From Planctomycetota bacterium (GTDB lineage Bacteria; Planctomycetota; UBA11346), in the NCBI GenBank assembly GCA_038213805.1, contig JBBQSO010000010.1, forward strand, positions 1 through 64,000: a DNA stretch of 64,000 nucleotides. Reading direction: 5' to 3'. This document shows positions 5,243 through 12,625 of the stretch, piece after piece (the stretch's first letter is position 1; each line of letters begins with the position of its first letter). Made by a program: the position numbers and the translations under genes. The notes beneath the pieces were generated by a model. That model did no database searches, was not told the origin of the DNA, and worked only from the letters and a program-made list of their open reading frames with translations.

Positions 5243-8200
5243 ATGTCCCATCGTCACCTGTGCGCCGCCACCCTGGTCCTGACGCTATCCGCGCTCGCCG
5301 CCATCCCGTACGCAGCGGCCACCGCAGCGGCCGACGCCGCACCCGCCGCCGTCACCGAGGACCCGACGACTCCCGCCGCCAGCGCGACGGCCGGCATCTG
5401 GTCCGGCCTCGACGGGCTCGCGGGCCTTGAGGAGCGCGACGGCGCGATCTGGTGGAAGGCCGCGATCGGACCTGGCATACGCATGAGCGGGGTCGATCCC
5501 GTAACGCGCGCGCCGCTGCTTGACACCCCGGCCGGCCCGCTGCGCGTCGATGCCGCGCTGCTGCAGGGCTCTGGCGACGAGCTGCTCGCCGCGCTGCCTC
5601 CACTGCTCGCCGCGGCCGCGGCGGCGCGGCTCGGGACCGCCACCCTGGAGCTGCGCCGCGGTATCATGACCGGCCCGCAGCTGCGCGGCACCGACCTGGT
5701 GGTGCTCGCCGAGGGCGTGCTGCGCAAGCAGGCGCTGCCGCCGCGCGACCTCGCACCGGTCAAGGCGCAGCTCGCCAGGGCCCAGGACGCGCTGGGCATG
5801 GCGCTGGCCCACAGCGGCCTGGGCGAACTCGCGCAGAAGAGCATCGCCGACGTTCTCGGCCATCTGGCCTCGGACGCGCCCGACCAGGATGGCGAGGAGC
5901 TCGACCCGAGTTTTACGCGGCGCCTGGTGCGCGGCGGCTGGCTGCGCACGGTGCTGCCCGCGGGCCCGGAGATCGCCGCGCTCGAACTCGCGGTGCGCGA
6001 TGCCGAGACCGTCGCGCCGGCGCAGGAGTTCAGCGGCCCCGGGCTGCGCCTCGCTGAGCTGCGCGACGCCTTCGGGCGCGGCGGTTGGATCCTGACCACG
6101 CCGAAGCGCAGCGCCTGCGTGCACCCGCACGACCACTTGCGGCTGTACGAAGCCCCAGAACTGCAGCTGGTCGTCGACCTGCCCGCGGGCAGCGACCCGC
6201 TCACCGCCGCCGGGCACGCCGAGCATGCCGCGCTGTACTGGGGCTCGCGCCGGTTGGCGAGCTGGCAGGCGGGCGCGCCTGATCCCGGCCAGGGCTTCCA
6301 CGCCGACGAGGATGCGTGGCGCGCGGCCATCCCCGACCACGGCGCCGGGATCACCGCGGCGGCGGTCAGCGACTTCGTGCCACCGCACATCCTCATCACC
6401 CAGTTCAATGGCGACCCGGTGCGCCTGGTCGGCCCACACGGCGCGCTCACGCCATCGCGGCCCGATGATACCGCCGACGCGGCGCGCTTCGTGCGCGAGG
6501 CCGCGCTGGCGCTGCCCACGCCGGCCGAGCTCGATCTGATCGGCGAACACCTCTTCACCTACGTCTTCGACAGCCCCGATCCCGCGCACCCGCTGCTGGT
6601 CGGCAACGCCACCAACAAGGGCGACATCCACCAGACCTCGGCGCAGACCTGCGCCGCCACCACGTGCGGGATGTTTCGCGGCGACTGCGATGACCTCGCC
6701 GAACTCTACCGCGACATCGCCGCCGCGCAGGGACGCATCGCCTACGTCATCCACCTGCCCGGGCATGCCGCCGCGGCCTTCGCCGAAAAGCAGGATGACG
6801 AGCAGTGGCACAGCTTCGTGCTGCAGACCGGCCAACCGCTGGAGTTCACCGCGCCCGACCTGCCGCACAGCCTCGAGCAGCTCTACAAGCACTTCGACCC
6901 AAACCGCCCGTTCGACGCCACCCAGGTCAGCCTGGCGCTGCGCTTCGAGGGCGAGAACACGCGCTCGACCTGGGTGCTGAGCTGGCGCATCTTCGCCGAG
7001 CGCGCCTACGCCGCGACCATGATCGAGGTCGAGCGCGACTGGTATTTCCACACCCACCACCGCGGCATCGCCACCATGCAGGCGCTGATCGCCGGCGGCG
7101 ACGAGGACTCGGCCAACTACGAGGAGCTGTCCGGGCTCTACCGGCGCACCGGCGAGTGGGACCAGTCGCTCGACTACAAGCGTCGCAGCATGGCGCACAT
7201 CAGCGACCCCAACACCCTGCTGCTCTACCGCATCGAGCTGGTCAGCCTGCTGGCGCGCGCCGAACGCTGGGACGAGGCCGGCGCCGCGGCGCGCGCGCTG
7301 CTCGACGGCGACCTGGCGGCACAACCGCAGGAGAAGCAGAACGAGGCGCTGCCGCGGTTCGCCACCATGCTCGCGGGCGCGCTCGACGACGAGCATCACG
7401 GCGCGCTGCGCCACGAGGTCATCGCCCGGCTGCTCTTCCCCGCGCTCGCCAAGCAGACCACCGGCGTGCGCCAGTGGCTGGACACACGCTTCGACCAGAA
7501 GGAATGGGACCGCAACCCGTGGATCGCGCAGTACCGCGGCCTGAGCGGCGGGCTGGTCGGCGACGTGCTCGGCCTGCTGCTCTCCGAGAAGGGCCCCGGG
7601 CTGCTCGCCAGCGATCCCGATCTGCGCGGCTGGACGGCTTTCGCCCAGGAGTGGATCGACAGTATCGGCTTCGTGCCGAATGGCGGCGAGCCCGCTGGCT
7701 TCCTCGCCGCCTACGCGACCAGCGCCGCGCTCGGCGAGGCGGTCCTCGGTCGCGACGCGCTGCGCGCCATGGTCGAGGCCGCGCCCTTCCCGACCACCCT
7801 CGAGCACGACCACCGCAAGCGCCTGCCCGGCCTCGTCCAGCTGCCTCGCGACCTGCCGTGGATCCACCTGTCGATCCCCTACTGGACGGGGGCGGTCTCG
7901 AACGAGCTGTGGCGGCAGAAAACCGGAGCCTTCGTGGCGGAACGCGTGGTGCGCCTGGGCGCGCCGCTGCGCGCGGCGGTCGCGCAGTGCCACGCCCTCG
8001 GTCTGGATTCGACCCAGGGTGAGCGCGCGGTGCGCCATGCGGAGCTGCTCATCGCTCTCGCCGGCCACGATGCGGGTACGCTGCGCACGCTCTTCGCCGA
8101 GGTCCGGGCACTCGGCGACCGCGCCACCTCGGAAGCCACCGCCGAGCTCATCGGCAGCGCGGCGAAGTACCTGGACCCGCCATGGTTCGCCACGGTGCTG

Positions 8201-8440
8201 GGCATCTGGCGCGAGGTCCTCGACCAGAAGCCGCTGTACTTCGCCATCGCCTGGAACGCCGCGGTCGCACATGCCGACGCCAACGCCCTGGCCGCGGCGC
8301 AACTGGCCGCGGCCCGCTTCCCCGACGATGCGGCCTTCGCCGAAGAGTTGTCCTACCTCAAGGCGGTGGTCGCCGGGCGGACGCCCACCGCGGCCGGCGG
8401 GACCGCGATCCCGCCCAGCGGCGCCCACGGAGCGCCATGA
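5243..8440 (+). CDS. Large exported protein with transglutaminase-like (GDCDD) domain and TPR-like helical C-terminal half
   Basis: Signal-peptide-like N-terminus from MSHRHL, RGDCDDLA...PGHAAAAF motif and TPR-like repeats (YEELSGLYRRTGEWDQSLDY). Strong GC3 codon bias. Confidence 0.65.
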   Translation: MSHRHLCAATLVLTLSALAAIPYAAATAAADAAPAAVTEDPTTPAASATAGIWSGLDGLAGLEERDGAIWWKAAIGPGIRMSGVDPVTRAPLLDTPAGPLRVDAALLQGSGDELLAALPPLLAAAAAARLGTATLELRRGIMTGPQLRGTDLVVLAEGVLRKQALPPRDLAPVKAQLARAQDALGMALAHSGLGELAQKSIADVLGHLASDAPDQDGEELDPSFTRRLVRGGWLRTVLPAGPEIAALELAVRDAETVAPAQEFSGPGLRLAELRDAFGRGGWILTTPKRSACVHPHDHLRLYEAPELQLVVDLPAGSDPLTAAGHAEHAALYWGSRRLASWQAGAPDPGQGFHADEDAWRAAIPDHGAGITAAAVSDFVPPHILITQFNGDPVRLVGPHGALTPSRPDDTADAARFVREAALALPTPAELDLIGEHLFTYVFDSPDPAHPLLVGNATNKGDIHQTSAQTCAATTCGMFRGDCDDLAELYRDIAAAQGRIAYVIHLPGHAAAAFAEKQDDEQWHSFVLQTGQPLEFTAPDLPHSLEQLYKHFDPNRPFDATQVSLALRFEGENTRSTWVLSWRIFAERAYAATMIEVERDWYFHTHHRGIATMQALIAGGDEDSANYEELSGLYRRTGEWDQSLDYKRRSMAHISDPNTLLLYRIELVSLLARAERWDEAGAAARALLDGDLAAQPQEKQNEALPRFATMLAGALDDEHHGALRHEVIARLLFPALAKQTTGVRQWLDTRFDQKEWDRNPWIAQYRGLSGGLVGDVLGLLLSEKGPGLLASDPDLRGWTAFAQEWIDSIGFVPNGGEPAGFLAAYATSAALGEAVLGRDALRAMVEAAPFPTTLEHDHRKRLPGLVQLPRDLPWIHLSIPYWTGAVSNELWRQKTGAFVAERVVRLGAPLRAAVAQCHALGLDSTQGERAVRHAELLIALAGHDAGTLRTLFAEVRALGDRATSEATAELIGSAAKYLDPPWFATVLGIWREVLDQKPLYFAIAWNAAVAHADANALAAAQLAAARFPDDAAFAEELSYLKAVVAGRTPTAAGGTAIPPSGAHGAP

Positions 8441-9738
8441 GCCAGATCCAGGCCGAGCGCGCGCGCGCCGCCTTCGCGGCGCGCTGGGCGCGCATCGCGG
8501 CGCGTTTCTTCACGCTCCAGATCGCCATCCAGGCGGTCAATTTCACGGCCGGGATGTTGGCGGTGTGGCAGGTCGCGCCCAGCGAGTACGCGCTGGTGAC
8601 CGTGGCGATCACCATGCTCGGCACCATGACCATCCTGGCCAACCTCGGGGTGTCGATCGGCATCACCTCGATCGGCGGGCGCGTACACGACGACCCGGTG
8701 CGCTTCGGCGCGCTGGTGCGCACCGGCCTGCGCCTGCGCTGGCTGCTCGCGGCCATCGCCCTGCCCGCCACCGCGCTGGCCCTGGTGCTGAGCCTGGCGG
8801 GCGCCCACGCCGCGCCGGCGGCGATCGCGGTGATCACCGCGCTGGTGCTGGCCGGGGCCGCCTGCGAGCTGACCTCCAGCCAGATGGCCGCGGTGCTGAT
8901 GCTGCGCGACCGCGTCGACGCGGTGCAGGCCATCGAGCTGGGCGTGGCGGCGCTGCGCCTGGCCCTGGTCGGAGCGCTCTACGCCGGCGGCGGACTCGCC
9001 GCCACCACCCTGGTCGCGGCGAGCCTAGCCGCGAGCCTGGCGCGGCGCTGGCTGATCGGCCGGCGCGTCGCCCGCGAGGTCGACTTGCACGCCGCCGAGG
9101 TCCCAAGCGACCGCACCGAGATGCTACGCCTGATGCGCCTTGAGGCGCCCAATTCACTGTTCTTCTGCTTCCAGGGGCAGATCGCGCTGTGGATCCTCGC
9201 CTGGTTCGGCGCGGTCGAGCAGATCGCCGGCCTGGGCGCGCTCGGTCGGCTGGCGGTGGTAGTCGGGGTGCTCGGCGCGTTTTTCAGCGCGGTGCTGGTG
9301 CAGGGCTTTGCACGGCTGCAGGATCCCGCCGGACTGCGCCGCCGCTATGCCGGGCTGGCCAGTCTGGCGCTGGCCATCGCCATCGCCGTGGTCGGCGCGG
9401 TGTGGCTGCTGCCCGGGCCGGTGCTGTGGGCGCTGGGGCCGCACTACCGCGGGTTGGGCGCCGAACTGCCGCTGATGGCCATCAACCTGATGCTCGGCTT
9501 CCTGGTCAACGTGGTCTGGGGGCTGAACGCCAGCAAGGCCTGGATCGGCGCGGTCGCGCGCGGCAACATCATCGCCACGGTGGCAGTGCAGGCCGCGCTG
9601 GCGACGCTGCTCGACCTGCGCACCCTCTCCGGGGTGATCATCTTCACCATCGTCGCGCAGATCCCCAACCTGCTGCTCTGCCTGATTGATGCCTACCGTG
9701 GTCTGGCCGCGGCGCGGCGCGGGGGGCTCGTGGCCTGA
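8437..9738 (+). CDS. Polysaccharide flippase (Wzx / MOP family)
   Basis: About 12 hydrophobic segments and an N-terminal pattern (..EYALVTVA..LANLGVS) typical of Wzx-like proteins. ATGA overlap with the upstream stop. Confidence 0.7.
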   Translation: MSQIQAERARAAFAARWARIAARFFTLQIAIQAVNFTAGMLAVWQVAPSEYALVTVAITMLGTMTILANLGVSIGITSIGGRVHDDPVRFGALVRTGLRLRWLLAAIALPATALALVLSLAGAHAAPAAIAVITALVLAGAACELTSSQMAAVLMLRDRVDAVQAIELGVAALRLALVGALYAGGGLAATTLVAASLAASLARRWLIGRRVAREVDLHAAEVPSDRTEMLRLMRLEAPNSLFFCFQGQIALWILAWFGAVEQIAGLGALGRLAVVVGVLGAFFSAVLVQGFARLQDPAGLRRRYAGLASLALAIAIAVVGAVWLLPGPVLWALGPHYRGLGAELPLMAINLMLGFLVNVVWGLNASKAWIGAVARGNIIATVAVQAALATLLDLRTLSGVIIFTIVAQIPNLLLCLIDAYRGLAAARRGGLVA

Positions 9739-10751
9739 GCGCGGCGCCGACGCGGCGCGGGACGCTCATCGAAGGCGGCGAAGAAACCGCCCTCGACCCA
9801 CTCGCGGAACCACACCATGACCTTGCCGGCGACCTCGGCGAGCTGCTCTGGCGCGGTGGTCGCTTCGAGCGTGGCGAGCGCCTCGCCCAGCGGCCGGCCG
9901 GCGAATAGCGACTCGAGGATGGCGGCCATCGGCATCGTCAGGTCCATGCGCCACAGCGCGAAGCCGCGCCGGTAGACCGCGGTCGCGGACGGCGCCGCGG
10001 CCGGGACGGCCGGTGCGCGCTCCTCGCGCCAGTCCTGCAGGAAGCGGTTGACCGGGTAGGCGAAGCGCAGCACCTGCACGGTCGCGCTCGGACGCAGGCG
10101 GACCGCACCCCAGCGCTCCATCGGGATGGCCTTGAGCGCCTCTGGCCGCAGCACCGGCGCGGCGGCGGCGTGCAGCACCTCGACCATCGCCCATTCCAGC
10201 CGCGCCAGGTCGGTGGCGAAGGCGCGCAGTGGCCAGCGCGCCGGCCGCTCGCCGCACCAGGTGATGAGGTTGCGACCATAGAAGTTGAGATTGGGCCCAC
10301 GCGACGGCCGGTGCTGGATGACCTCGCGCGCCAGCGCCTCGAAGGGCGCGTGGCCGAGCGCGTACTGCAGCGCGGGATAGTCGTCGATCAGGCAGTCGAC
10401 CAGGCGCGCGTGGTAGGCGTAGTGGTAGATCGCGAGGCGGCCGGCCGCATCGAGTTGCGGCCCATCGGTGACCAGACGGGTCAGCGCGCGTGCGTCCAGG
10501 CCAAGCGTGGGATTCGCCGCCGCCACCCCGGCCGCGACGCTGCGCGGATGGGTGACCACATTCGCGAACCAGTCCTGCGCGGCGCGCAGCGGCACCGCGA
10601 GTGGCGCCTGCGCCACGGCACGGCGAGCATGCCGTGCCCGGCCGGCGGGCGCCTGACCCGGGCTGGCGCTGGCGCGCTCGACGATGGGCGTCTCGGCGAG
10701 GCCGCCGGCCTCGGGCGCGGGCAGCGGGGCGGCGACGGGACGGCGCGTCAT
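9693..10751 (-). CDS. DUF2063-type MNIO partner protein (BufC/HvfC-like)
   Basis: RLAIYHYAYHARLVDCLIDDYPAL..LG..F, PSRGPNLNFYG and DLARLEWA motifs. ATGA-coupled directly downstream of DUF692. Confidence 0.85.
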   Translation of the reverse strand: MTRRPVAAPLPAPEAGGLAETPIVERASASPGQAPAGRARHARRAVAQAPLAVPLRAAQDWFANVVTHPRSVAAGVAAANPTLGLDARALTRLVTDGPQLDAAGRLAIYHYAYHARLVDCLIDDYPALQYALGHAPFEALAREVIQHRPSRGPNLNFYGRNLITWCGERPARWPLRAFATDLARLEWAMVEVLHAAAAPVLRPEALKAIPMERWGAVRLRPSATVQVLRFAYPVNRFLQDWREERAPAVPAAAPSATAVYRRGFALWRMDLTMPMAAILESLFAGRPLGEALATLEATTAPEQLAEVAGKVMVWFREWVEGGFFAAFDERPAPRRRRAQATSPPRRAAARPR

Positions 10752-11710
10752 ACCGCCGCCCGCTGGCGCGCGGCGCGCTGCGCCGCCGGGGGACGCGTGG
10801 GCGCGACAGGCCGCTCCGCCCCCACGATCACGGTCGGGGCGCGGGGCGCACGCGGCGTGGGCAGGGCGCGCCGCGCGACGAACTCCCGCGCGCGCTGGGC
10901 GTCGCGCAGCACCACGTCGAAGGCGGGGATCTCGGCGTCCCATTCCAGCGCGACGCTGGCGCCACCGCAGCGGCGGTAGACCTCGCCGAACAGCTCCCAG
11001 ACCGGGTCGGGAACCGGCCCGATGTGGGTGTCGACGAGATGGGTGCCGTTGTCGGTGTGGCCGGCCACGTGCATCTGCACGATGCGGTCGAAGGGCAACG
11101 CCTCCAGGTAGTCAGCCTTGGCGAAGCCGTGGTTGCGCGCGCTGACGTGGATGTTGTTGACGTCGAGCATCAGCCCGCAGTCCGTCAGCCGGCAGAGTTC
11201 GGCGAGGAACTCCGGCTCGGTGAAATGGTTGCCGGCGAACTCGACGTAGGTGGAAGGGTTCTCGAGGAAGAGCGGCGCGGCGAGCGCGTCCTGGACCTGG
11301 CGGACGCGCCGCGCGACGTGGCGCAGGCTCTCGCGCGTATACGGCATGGGCAGCAGGTCGTGGGTATTGCGGCCGCTGACGCCGGTCCAGCACAGGTGGT
11401 CGGAGACCCACAGCGCGCCACAGCGGTCGCGCAGCGCGCGCAGCTCCTTCAAATAGGTCCGATCGAGCGGATCGGTCGTGCCGATCGACAGCGACACGCC
11501 GTGCATCACCACCGGATAGCGCTCGGCGATGCGGTCGAGCACCTGCAGCGGGCGCCCGGCGGTCTGCATGTAGTTTTCGGAGATGATCTCAAAGAAGCCC
11601 ACCGTCGGCCAATGGCTGAGAATGTGGCTGTAGTGCGTGGTGCGCAGCCCCAGGCCGACGCCGAGATTGGGCAGGCCGAAGCGGTTCGCGGGGTGGGCGG
11701 CTCGGGGCAT
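10748..11710 (-). CDS. DUF692 multinuclear non-heme iron oxidative enzyme (MNIO; MbnB/TglH/BufB family)
   Basis: GLGLR, EIISENYM, HGVSLSIG, WVSDHLCW, DLLPMPY, LENPSTY, LDVNNIHV, HVAGH, DTH and LEWD motifs are all present. Confidence 0.95.
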   Translation of the reverse strand: MPRAAHPANRFGLPNLGVGLGLRTTHYSHILSHWPTVGFFEIISENYMQTAGRPLQVLDRIAERYPVVMHGVSLSIGTTDPLDRTYLKELRALRDRCGALWVSDHLCWTGVSGRNTHDLLPMPYTRESLRHVARRVRQVQDALAAPLFLENPSTYVEFAGNHFTEPEFLAELCRLTDCGLMLDVNNIHVSARNHGFAKADYLEALPFDRIVQMHVAGHTDNGTHLVDTHIGPVPDPVWELFGEVYRRCGGASVALEWDAEIPAFDVVLRDAQRAREFVARRALPTPRAPRAPTVIVGAERPVAPTRPPAAQRAARQRAAV

Positions 11711-11769
11711 GGGACCTCGCAGCGGTGTACGTTCGGGAAGCGGTAGCGGTTTGGTGGATTGTGTCTTGG

Positions 11770-11949
11770 GCTGATGGCTGATGGCTGATGGCTGATGGCT
11801 GATGGCTGATGGCTGATGGCTGACAGCGGACGGCCAGCGTCCGCGTCGTCAACCACCTTCGCAGGGCGGCGAGTTGCGGGCAACGCTTCTCGGGTCCTTG
11901 GTCGCGCGTCTCGATCCGAGCTGTCAGCCATCAGCCAACAGCCATCAGC
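11770..11949. repeat. Inverted pair of heptamer tandem-repeat arms: (GCTGATG)7-GCTGACAGC ... GCTGTCAGC-CATCAGC-CAACAGC-CATCAGC
   Basis: Left arm 11770-11827 and right arm 11920-11949 are reverse complements over ~30 bp (one mismatch), around a ~92 nt spacer. Confidence 0.9.
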
Positions 11950-11952
11950 GGC

Positions 11953-11986
11953 AAGCAAAACGGCGACCCCCTTTCGGGAGCCGCCG
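11953..11986 (-). terminator. Intrinsic terminator/attenuator after the RiPP precursor gene
   Basis: Minus strand reads CGGCGGCTCCC-GAAA-GGGGGTCGCCG-TTTTGCTT: an 11-bp stem with G-U pairs, a GNRA loop and a short U tract. Confidence 0.7.
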
Positions 11987-12031
11987 CCCATGAAACCGGG
12001 CGCCGCAGGCGCGCCCCTCATCGCATCAGGT

Positions 12032-12352
12032 TCAGTGCTTGGGGGTGCCGCAGCCGCCATGGCCCTTGCACTCGTTCTTGCCGCCCTTGCCCTTGCCCTT
12101 GCAGTCGTTCTTGCCCTTGCAGTCGTGCTTGTCGGTGGCGCAGCCGCCCTTGCCCTTGCACTCGTTCTTGCCGGTCTCGCCGGCGCAGCCGCCCTTGCCC
12201 TTGCAGGAGTTCAGGCCCTTGCAGTCGTGCTTCTCGCTGGCGCCGGCGGTCTCGCCCGCTTCGGCCGAGAAGGCGTTCTGGAAGTAGGTCTGGCCGGCGC
12301 CGGCGAGGATGCCGGTGACGGCGGCGGCGAGGATGGCGTTGGAGATCTTCAT
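12032..12352 (-). CDS. Secreted Cys-rich MNIO RiPP precursor (BufA2-like metallophore precursor), 106 aa
   Basis: Signal-peptide-like MKISNAILAAAVTGILAGA, then a core with 6 CKG and 3 GGC motifs (9 Cys). SD-like GAAGGA upstream. Lies immediately upstream of DUF692. Confidence 0.9.
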   Translation of the reverse strand: MKISNAILAAAVTGILAGAGQTYFQNAFSAEAGETAGASEKHDCKGLNSCKGKGGCAGETGKNECKGKGGCATDKHDCKGKNDCKGKGKGGKNECKGHGGCGTPKH

Positions 12353-12625
12353 GGAATGATCCTTCTCGGAGGGACGCTCCGGAACAGGGGTGGACTGGTG
12401 AATGTATGGCTCTACGGGCCGTGTTCCACCGTGTTTGCGGTATTCCGTCCAGCGGCCGTGTGAGGCCAAGGCCGGAACCAGGGATGGAACGTACTGACTG
12501 AGGGGCATCTGCGACGGAGTCGTAAAGGCCCGGAATGAGTAGCGGTTGCATGCGAATTGCCTTGAGATCGGCGATTTTGACCTACTCTACCGCGCTTCAC
12601 CTCAACCGGACCCCTTGGACCACGC

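Follow-up and report, generated by a model that had tools for sequence, protein, structure and literature searches.

What does a small operon that couples a cysteine-rich peptide to an oxidative maturase make in a bacterium known only from its genome? The operon in question comprises three genes on the minus strand of an uncultured planctomycete genome (label G000, 5.5 Mb, 90 % complete) and lies in a 64-kb stretch of one contig, hereafter the window. In this order, it encodes a precursor peptide, an MNIO (DUF692) maturase and a DUF2063 (PME1) partner, all three as open reading frames (ORFs) without interruption. Judged from sequence, the locus is a real system of the bufferin-2-like "Cys-Lys" captophorin type, a known kind of system that is represented here by an uncharacterised, widespread variant branch. 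The probability that the operon makes an exported copper-binding peptide of this bufferin-2/Cys-Lys captophorin kind is put at roughly three in four, an estimate that covers the whole explanation, maturation and regulation steps included. Captophorins, with a Cys-Lys precursor group among them, have already been defined (PMC13097082), so that the type of system is no surprise in kind.

The MNIO reaches 343.5 bits on the NCBIfam model MNIO_BufB (NF050167, cut-off 310) and 347.6 bits on Pfam PF05114, while the other NCBIfam models MbnB (54 bits), ChrH (38) and ApyH (106) lie far lower than BufB and the HvfB model stays below its cut-off (242 vs 360). Similarly, the partner passes PF09836 (58 bits, cut-off 27.2) and remains below the HvfC cut-off (46.9 vs 142). 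Since both proteins pass these family models and an MNIO is found within 1.5 kb of the precursor at 22 of 24 further loci of the phylum, the three-gene arrangement is not a matter of chance. The stop codon of the MNIO gene overlaps the start of the partner gene as ATGA, an arrangement of translational coupling. An earlier, sequence-only reading had proposed such a minus-strand operon with an intact DUF692 enzyme and ATGA coupling, which the ORFs and family matches confirm; the same matches support its view that MNIO, DUF2063 protein and signal-peptide precursor form a bufferin/captophorin layout. At 143 of 266 positions the MNIO is identical to a canonical BufA2-linked enzyme. It retains the motif residues H70, H105, E150, D183, N186, H214, D227, H229, E256 and D258, which we take, from the structures of MbnB and TglH, to be the iron ligands and the catalytic base. 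A catalytic Asp has been assigned the role of base in MNIO enzymes (PMC13097082).

The precursor carries its cysteines at residues 44, 50, 56, 65, 71, 78, 84, 95 and 101, and the core quoted in the sequence-only reading agrees letter for letter with the translation. At the DNA level, this core is a tandem repeat with a period of 90 and 1.9 copies. The N-terminus, judged by eye, combines a hydrophobic stretch (hydropathy) with a small-residue cleavage region and contains neither a twin arginine nor a lipobox Cys; a low-confidence AlphaFold2 model places a helix over residues 4–27. In an alignment with a canonical BufA2-type peptide, C65, C71, C78 and C84 fall on its Cys two to five. In five such peptides from plasmid records the core starts with C(Y/S)G and a longer segment precedes the last Cys, and it is this start and the long terminal segment that are replaced here by further CKG/GGC units. 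The ESM Atlas returned 30 unnamed clusters at ~0.90 and, as the nearest named one, "putative BufA2" at 0.80, which is a lead only. A longer precursor of 158 amino acids (aa), beginning at the ORF-finder start 12508, is judged unlikely because the ribosome-binding site GAGAAGGA sits 7 nucleotides (nt) before the ATG at 12352, because the closest homologues share the start MK(I/L/V)S and because the promoter-like motif described below would fall within the extension.

The precursor belongs to a large family. A protein search recovered 968 homologues among 1764 candidates of 58–186 aa, the nearest named records being metagenome-assembled genomes of Planctomycetota with precursors 95–97 % identical. 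A family profile matches 46 of 301 Planctomycetota genomes, and related loci are found in Verrucomicrobiota, Myxococcota and Bdellovibrionota as well. Dataset S2 of PMC13097082 contains 116 occurrences of CKGKGGC, the first 30 of which fall in 28 rows; six of these rows are "CK-style" ORFs with nine core Cys and the same grammar. The idea that the operon has a repeat grammar of its own is therefore not upheld. Nor is the odd number of cysteines special, as odd counts occur in 22 of 121 members (the query and the best 120 of the 968 homologues), the distribution being 6 (2 members), 7 (1), 8 (17), 9 (8), 10 (54), 11 (9), 12 (26) and 13 (4). Alignments of 34 and 85 rows reveal eight invariant Cys and two invariant His, and the core can be described as two tandem half-domains, HxC-x5-C-loop-NxC-x5-C, in which the loop holds two, one or no extra Cys. 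Among the same 121 sequences the combinations 6+4 (46), 6+6 (18), 4+4 (16), 5+5 (10) and 4+5 (7) are the most frequent, and 5+4, as here, is encountered twice; nine cysteines are just one combination.

Precursor and enzyme also travel together. In 41 related genomes, which are kin and not independent samples, a precursor-profile match and an above-cut-off BufB coincide in the same 19, and none has the precursor family without such a BufB. One of the 19 (G032) has weak profile matches only: its BufB is preceded by an unrelated precursor with SCGGDK repeats, a different grammar. When applied to nine relatives, the BufA2 model is passed by three (62.8, 85.1 and 90.0) and failed by six (34.7–57.6); P0022 and P0115, which are intermediate between the HxC/GGC and the canonical forms, pass. 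Leaders and architectures vary within the family. Of 120 homologous precursors, 48 have a twin-arginine leader (RRxF), frequently together with a lipobox-like Cys, the one studied here being Sec-like, and the main text of PMC12452194 contains neither "Tat" nor "twin-arginine". The precursors of G029 and G021 consist of four three-Cys units separated by Lys/Ala-rich linkers of ~25 residues.

How the peptide might be matured can be proposed from its characterised relatives. In Buf2, each of the four central Cys loses 4.03 Da and a disulfide likely joins the first to the last Cys (PMC11626156), the six-Cys form being the subject of PMC8692599, and 5-thiooxazoles are the products of those PME1-dependent MNIOs that have been tested (PMC13097082). 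Here, the MNIO and its DUF2063 partner would oxidise core cysteines to 5-thiooxazoles in the cytoplasm, with a change of -4.03 Da each; the modified peptide would exit via Sec and lose its signal peptide, and, once in the periplasm, its ring thiols and nitrogens would coordinate Cu(I)/Cu(II), with each chain probably taking up more than one ion. The product is likely to be a periplasmic poly-5-thiooxazole copper binder. Within this model, conversion of most or all nine Cys (-36.3 Da for nine rings) is given slightly better than even odds, because each Cys context resembles a modified central Cys of canonical BufA2-type peptides: HxCKG, NxCKG and GGC match the fourth, the second/fifth and the third Cys of a canonical peptide, respectively, positions that carry the modification in Buf2, so that local context favours all nine rings. 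Alternatively, Buf2-like clamps would give seven rings and one disulfide (-30.2 Da) or five rings and two disulfides (-24.2 Da), which is favoured by the symmetrical invariance of the outer Cys pairs.

The genome holds two further precursors of the family, on C57 and C35, both without an adjacent maturase. The C57 precursor has 10 Cys and a strong hairpin on its 3' side (z -5.4); it is followed by DoxX, with an MsrB gene in divergent orientation, and the locus (L004:3372-9142) further includes an NDH-2-like oxidoreductase, a multi-pass membrane protein and a divergent MsrA-like gene. The paralog that adjoins DoxX passes the BufA2 model (62.8 vs 60). The C35 precursor (L003:4503-6983) combines six core Cys with a lipobox-like Cys and a lipoprotein-type signal. 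Behind it lie genes for two enzymes, a HemK-like methyltransferase and a diiron oxidase of heme-oxygenase-like type (PF14518), which were considered as tailoring enzymes and rejected: the G007 paralog locus and the 24 phylum loci lack them, ~270 nt with a hairpin separate them from the precursor, and the linkage is seen only in G000 and its close relative G010. Because the genome has one BufB-type MNIO and a single DUF2063 match for three precursors, maturation of the C57 and C35 peptides in trans by the enzyme pair of the operon is likely. A second MNIO (C2:95306-97738) was discarded as a maturase, since it scores 215.9 on BufB (cut-off 310) and falls outside the MNIO clade discussed below; its upstream neighbour encodes a membrane protein whose tail is rich in Cys, and it constitutes a separate system.

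A putative common signal connects the three precursors. By-eye comparison identified GCAAAC-N16/17-CGTA upstream of all of them, 86, 106 and 184 nt before their starts. As the motif was spotted after the fact, it was tested against random triplets of 2145 crude upstream regions: a shared 6+4 key of any kind occurred in 419 of 200,000 draws, and one of at most 60 % GC in 8. The genome contains 4 exact copies, near the 2.9 expected, and the strict pattern is not enriched over a reversed control across the 41 genomes, so that only its placement is informative. The fourth exact copy heads an operon on C104 (13943-15806) that encodes a lipoprotein-type thioredoxin (WCPPC), an extracytoplasmic function (ECF) sigma factor and an anti-sigma-like protein, for which a membrane segment is predicted and which contains a PDZ domain and scores weakly as an anti-sigma (35.3 vs 100). 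For a random site, the chance of lying at most 600 nt before any of the 51 sigma-region matches is ~0.3 %. Self-activation is typical of ECF sigma factors, and the sigma/PDZ pair is conserved within the family of planctomycete genomes. No named ECF group could be assigned to this sigma factor from 17 of the 22 PDZ passages in the supplement of PMC7826278.

The motif can be followed into related genomes to some extent. The 3 strict matches of G003 all occupy orthologous places, with changed spacers. In G017, from another genus, the orthologue of the C104 sigma factor (reciprocal best match) is the divergent neighbour of the precursor gene, and each of the two genes has a variant of the motif facing it. 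Of the 20 sigma loci recovered, 5 have the motif ahead of them. A matrix made from these five sites, which had themselves been found with the precursor-derived pattern so that the comparison is partly circular, reaches at least 13, a score higher than that of 99.7 % of background windows, upstream of the precursors in G000, G003, G010, G012, G014, G017 and G021, and less than 13 in G002, G004, G005, G006, G007, G022, G264 and four genomes of other families. Thirteen same-family genomes allow both tests: six have sigma factor and motif, five have neither, in G004 the sigma factor occurs alone, and in G010 (68 % complete) the motif. None of the 24 further phylum loci has DoxX or the C104-type ECF sigma. 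NrsF gave 0 matches in the 90 % complete genome, the control being positive in C. vibrioides. Hence, the suggestion of the sequence-only reading that regulation may differ finds support, though on other grounds, with a different ECF system as the predicted regulator. All three precursors are predicted to be turned on by one ECF sigma factor, whose anti-sigma-like partner carries a PDZ domain, and this predicted control is limited to a lineage.

Going further, one may picture a dispersed captophorin regulon in which one MNIO/PME1 pair matures a soluble nine-Cys, a soluble 10-Cys (beside DoxX) and a lipid-anchored six-Cys precursor into poly-thiooxazole chains that lack a scaffold and hold several copper ions, all of it under an undescribed ECF sigma factor that activates its own expression; the PDZ anti-sigma and the lipoprotein thioredoxin of this factor would sense periplasmic damage and not metal. 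This full picture is tentative and, taken together, rather doubtful.

A number of observations speak against a bufferin-2-like copper binder. BufA2 (NF050166) is the only match of the precursor in the NCBIfam library, with 41.5 bits (E 1e-10) under a cut-off of 60, so that the proposed BufA2 likeness holds as a resemblance and fails as a membership; with nine Cys, the precursor also departs from the BufA2 feature of 6 or 12 conserved Cys. No Pfam family matches it, which extends to BufA1 (DUF2282, PF10048), one of the other models named in the sequence-only reading. For the BufA2 fold, a small beta sheet plus helix that a disulfide between the first and the last Cys closes, two AlphaFold2 runs (34- and 85-row alignments) gave unusable models, with a mean confidence (pLDDT) of 47.0 and 45.2. 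The peptide lacks two segments that the five canonical peptides have, the C(Y/F)G strand and a helical one at the C-terminus, and in Buf1 both stability and part of the Cu site have been linked to the beta sheet (PMC11626156). According to PMC13097082 itself, 5-thiooxazole is not established as the sole product of such clusters. In the LEWDAE segment of the MNIO, Ala259 (the position of Phe250 in FonB) follows the catalytic Asp, in place of the Asp of the Cys-Lys logo, which is a logo feature and no formal criterion. The flanks of the operon in the window hold no copper-related gene, the CopA-type ATPase of the genome is not among the motif matches, and in 7 of the 14 same-family genomes scored no motif lies ahead of the precursor. 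Finally, no characterised member of the HxC/GGC branch was found in searches of the open literature, although the PDF supplement of PMC12452194 may show such forms. The missing strand and helix motifs, the separate MNIO clade and the lack of a characterised member are the points in which the branch truly differs from Buf2.

Could the same chemistry serve another purpose than copper binding? The peptide might handle another soft metal (Ag, Au, Hg or Zn) or act as a thiol/disulfide sink under envelope stress, an explanation that is unlikely and still the best of the rivals. It would account for the thioredoxin, DoxX and PDZ protein in the predicted regulon, for the MsrB (methionine sulfoxide reductase) gene beside the second precursor and for a CopA-type ATPase devoid of the motif. 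Copper itself causes periplasmic thiol stress, and the content of the regulon therefore fits copper as well. MerC-Buf2 fusions exist and point to other metals (PMC12452194); against this, the characterised relatives bind copper, Buf1 doing so 1:1 and selectively in a metal mixture, the buf genes protect against it, and buf1 and buf2, both under SigF control, are induced by Cu and not by Fe, Zn or Mn (PMC11626156).

The chemistry itself can also be questioned. In a tree of 35 MNIO sequences, the enzyme falls into a clade of 23 (support 99/97), made up of 22 enzymes with HxC/GGC precursors and one from Pseudoalteromonas, apart from five canonical BufA2-linked enzymes. Together with the Ala at the signature position and the absence of Buf2 scaffold motifs, this might mean that the clade installs another Cys modification, such as an oxazolone-thioamide, cross-links or macrocycles, and that the product is no captophorin. 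Such an outcome is improbable: the enzyme passes the BufB equivalog cut-off; after the catalytic Asp, 15 of the 22 clade members that are readable there have Ala and the other 7 Asp, but the canonical enzymes vary at this position as well (Asp in 3, Gly in 2 of 5); the FonB variants F250A and F250D still gave 5-thiooxazole (PMC13097082); and the tree is a small, hand-picked sample that does not include C. vibrioides BufB2. On the Pseudoalteromonas plasmid (L076:65-1936), the same-clade MNIO is preceded by a 623-aa, 15-Cys protein with HxC/NxC/GGC near its end, a candidate protein-sized MNIO substrate. Least probable of all is a peptide that stays un- or marginally modified and, once secreted, functions simply like a metallothionein or as a disulfide-bonded chain. 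An enzyme is indeed missing beside two of the three paralogs, and FonBC left Cys-Lys motifs such as NACKG unprocessed (PMC13097082), so that activity on CKG needs a matched enzyme; this is opposed by the close genomic association with an intact MNIO-PME1 pair in different phyla and by the co-occurrence with BufB in the related genomes. An exported thiooxazole peptide that binds copper remains the preferred interpretation.

The features of the operon are collected in the table below.

Features of the precursor-MNIO-DUF2063 operon and its immediate surroundings (positions within the 64-kb window).
Feature	Position	Strand	Remarks
DUF2063 (PME1) partner gene, bufC-like	9693..10751	-	352 aa; PF09836
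MNIO (DUF692) maturase gene, bufB-like	10748..11710	-	320 aa; NCBIfam MNIO_BufB and PF05114
(GCCATCA)n array	11769..11823	.	7.9 copies; genome-wide intergenic repeat, outside the system
Stem-loop 3' of precursor, GAAA loop and short U tail	11958..11989	-	RNA fold
Precursor peptide gene, bufA-like	12032..12352	-	106 aa, 9 Cys
Cys-rich core, two tandem half-domains, 5 + 4 Cys	12050..12232	-	six CKG, three GGC
Predicted Sec-type signal peptide, ~residues 1-29	12266..12352	-	hydropathy; by eye
Ribosome-binding site GAGAAGGA of precursor	12360..12367	-	sequence, 7 nt 5' of ATG 12352
Promoter-like motif of ECF-sigma type, GCAAAC-N16-CGTA	12413..12438	-	86 nt 5' of precursor start; putative function

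The stem-loop has a predicted energy of -25.9 kcal/mol, with a z score of -3.8 on a 46-nt piece chosen by eye and of -1.4 on an 87-nt piece, and is not among the calls of a terminator scan. It is a possible partial terminator or mRNA stabiliser and could yield precursor in excess over enzyme. A sigma-70 promoter scan called no promoter. In one permafrost metatranscriptome run, 6 % of the words are present and 50 contig pieces align, mostly to the precursor core; 4 of the 50 do so at 99 % identity or more, so that most represent RNA of relatives, and strand and level are not readable from them. Upstream, the operon is flanked by a divergent gene for an RhlE-like DEAD-box helicase and downstream by a convergent multi-pass membrane protein (8437-9738), flippase-like by eye and without a Pfam or NCBIfam match, which overlaps the 3' end of the partner gene by 46 nt and has as its other neighbour an exported-looking protein of 1064 aa (5246-8440). 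No DoxX or sigma gene adjoins the operon. The sequence-only reading was right on this point and wrong to regard it as unusual, since such an absence is normal for Buf2 clusters: the founding buf2 cluster has no DoxX, which is dispensable for Buf1 (PMC11626156), and sigma/NrsF genes accompany Buf1 and not Buf2 clusters (PMC12452194). A second (GCCATCA)n heptamer array lies at 11924-11949; genome-wide, 183 arrays of at least three units occur, often as inverted pairs and several at contig ends, which is reminiscent of repetitive extragenic palindromes.

The locus stands for a large branch of Cys-Lys captophorins that occurs in Planctomycetota, Verrucomicrobiota and other phyla and appears not to have been characterised. 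The members of this branch form a natural deletion series of 8 to 12 Cys around an invariant eight-Cys frame, with which the assignment of ring versus disulfide cysteines and the copper stoichiometry become testable, and three precursors per enzyme pair offer a test of maturation in trans. If true, the predicted sigma factor with its promoter would add to SigF/NrsF a second, independent way of controlling bufferins. In print, Buf2 peptides have 6 or 12 Cys, precursors often stand alone, and ORFs with 1–18 Cys lie before MNIOs in hundreds of further cases; a supplement table already lists a planctomycete, Pirellula staleyi, and a verrucomicrobial genome, Opitutus terrae, among the carriers of Buf2 (PMC12452194).

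Among the known systems, bufferin 1 (DUF2282/BufA1, with SigF/NrsF = ECF16) shares with the present one an ECF-type control, predicted here, and a set of four Cys that is mirrored in count by the four-Cys half-domain, but differs in the DUF2282 domain and in NrsF, the candidate anti-sigma here being a PDZ-domain protein that is predicted to cross the membrane once. Fontiphorin, oxazolin (HvfA) and gonophorin resemble it in their low-complexity repeat core (seven 5-thiooxazoles in fontiphorin), a signal peptide, predicted here, and MNIO plus PME1; their repeats, however, are Lys-Cys 5-mers (EGKCG, which has no match in six frames of the genome) in contrast to the Cys-Lys 6-mer spacing found here, and the enzymes of oxazolin belong to the HvfB and HvfC models, whose cut-offs the MNIO and its partner do not reach. 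The Cys-Lys captophorins of PMC13097082 likewise combine MNIO, PME1 and a Cys-rich precursor with several Cys-Lys motifs. Their dataset rows of the same grammar, which are apparently uncharacterised, have twin-arginine lipoprotein-like leaders and 4+5 Cys, whereas a predicted Sec-type leader and 5+4 Cys are found here, and the MNIO has no logo Asp. Bufferin 2 of Caulobacter vibrioides (BufA2-BufB2-BufC2; BUF_6/12Cys family; PMC11626156, PMC12452194) differs in having 6 or 12 Cys in place of nine in two shortened half-domains, a C(Y/F)G strand in place of HxCKG and ~12 residues, not 5, between the last NxC and the following Cys, here of GGC; the present precursor lies below the BufA2 cut-off, has no confident fold and is assigned a predicted regulator other than SigF/NrsF. 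It is nevertheless with bufferin 2 that the operon shares the gene order precursor-MNIO-DUF2063 without an adjacent DoxX, the (here predicted) signal peptide, the 5/5/6/5 Cys spacing, the NxCKG motifs and an MNIO above the BufB cut-off.

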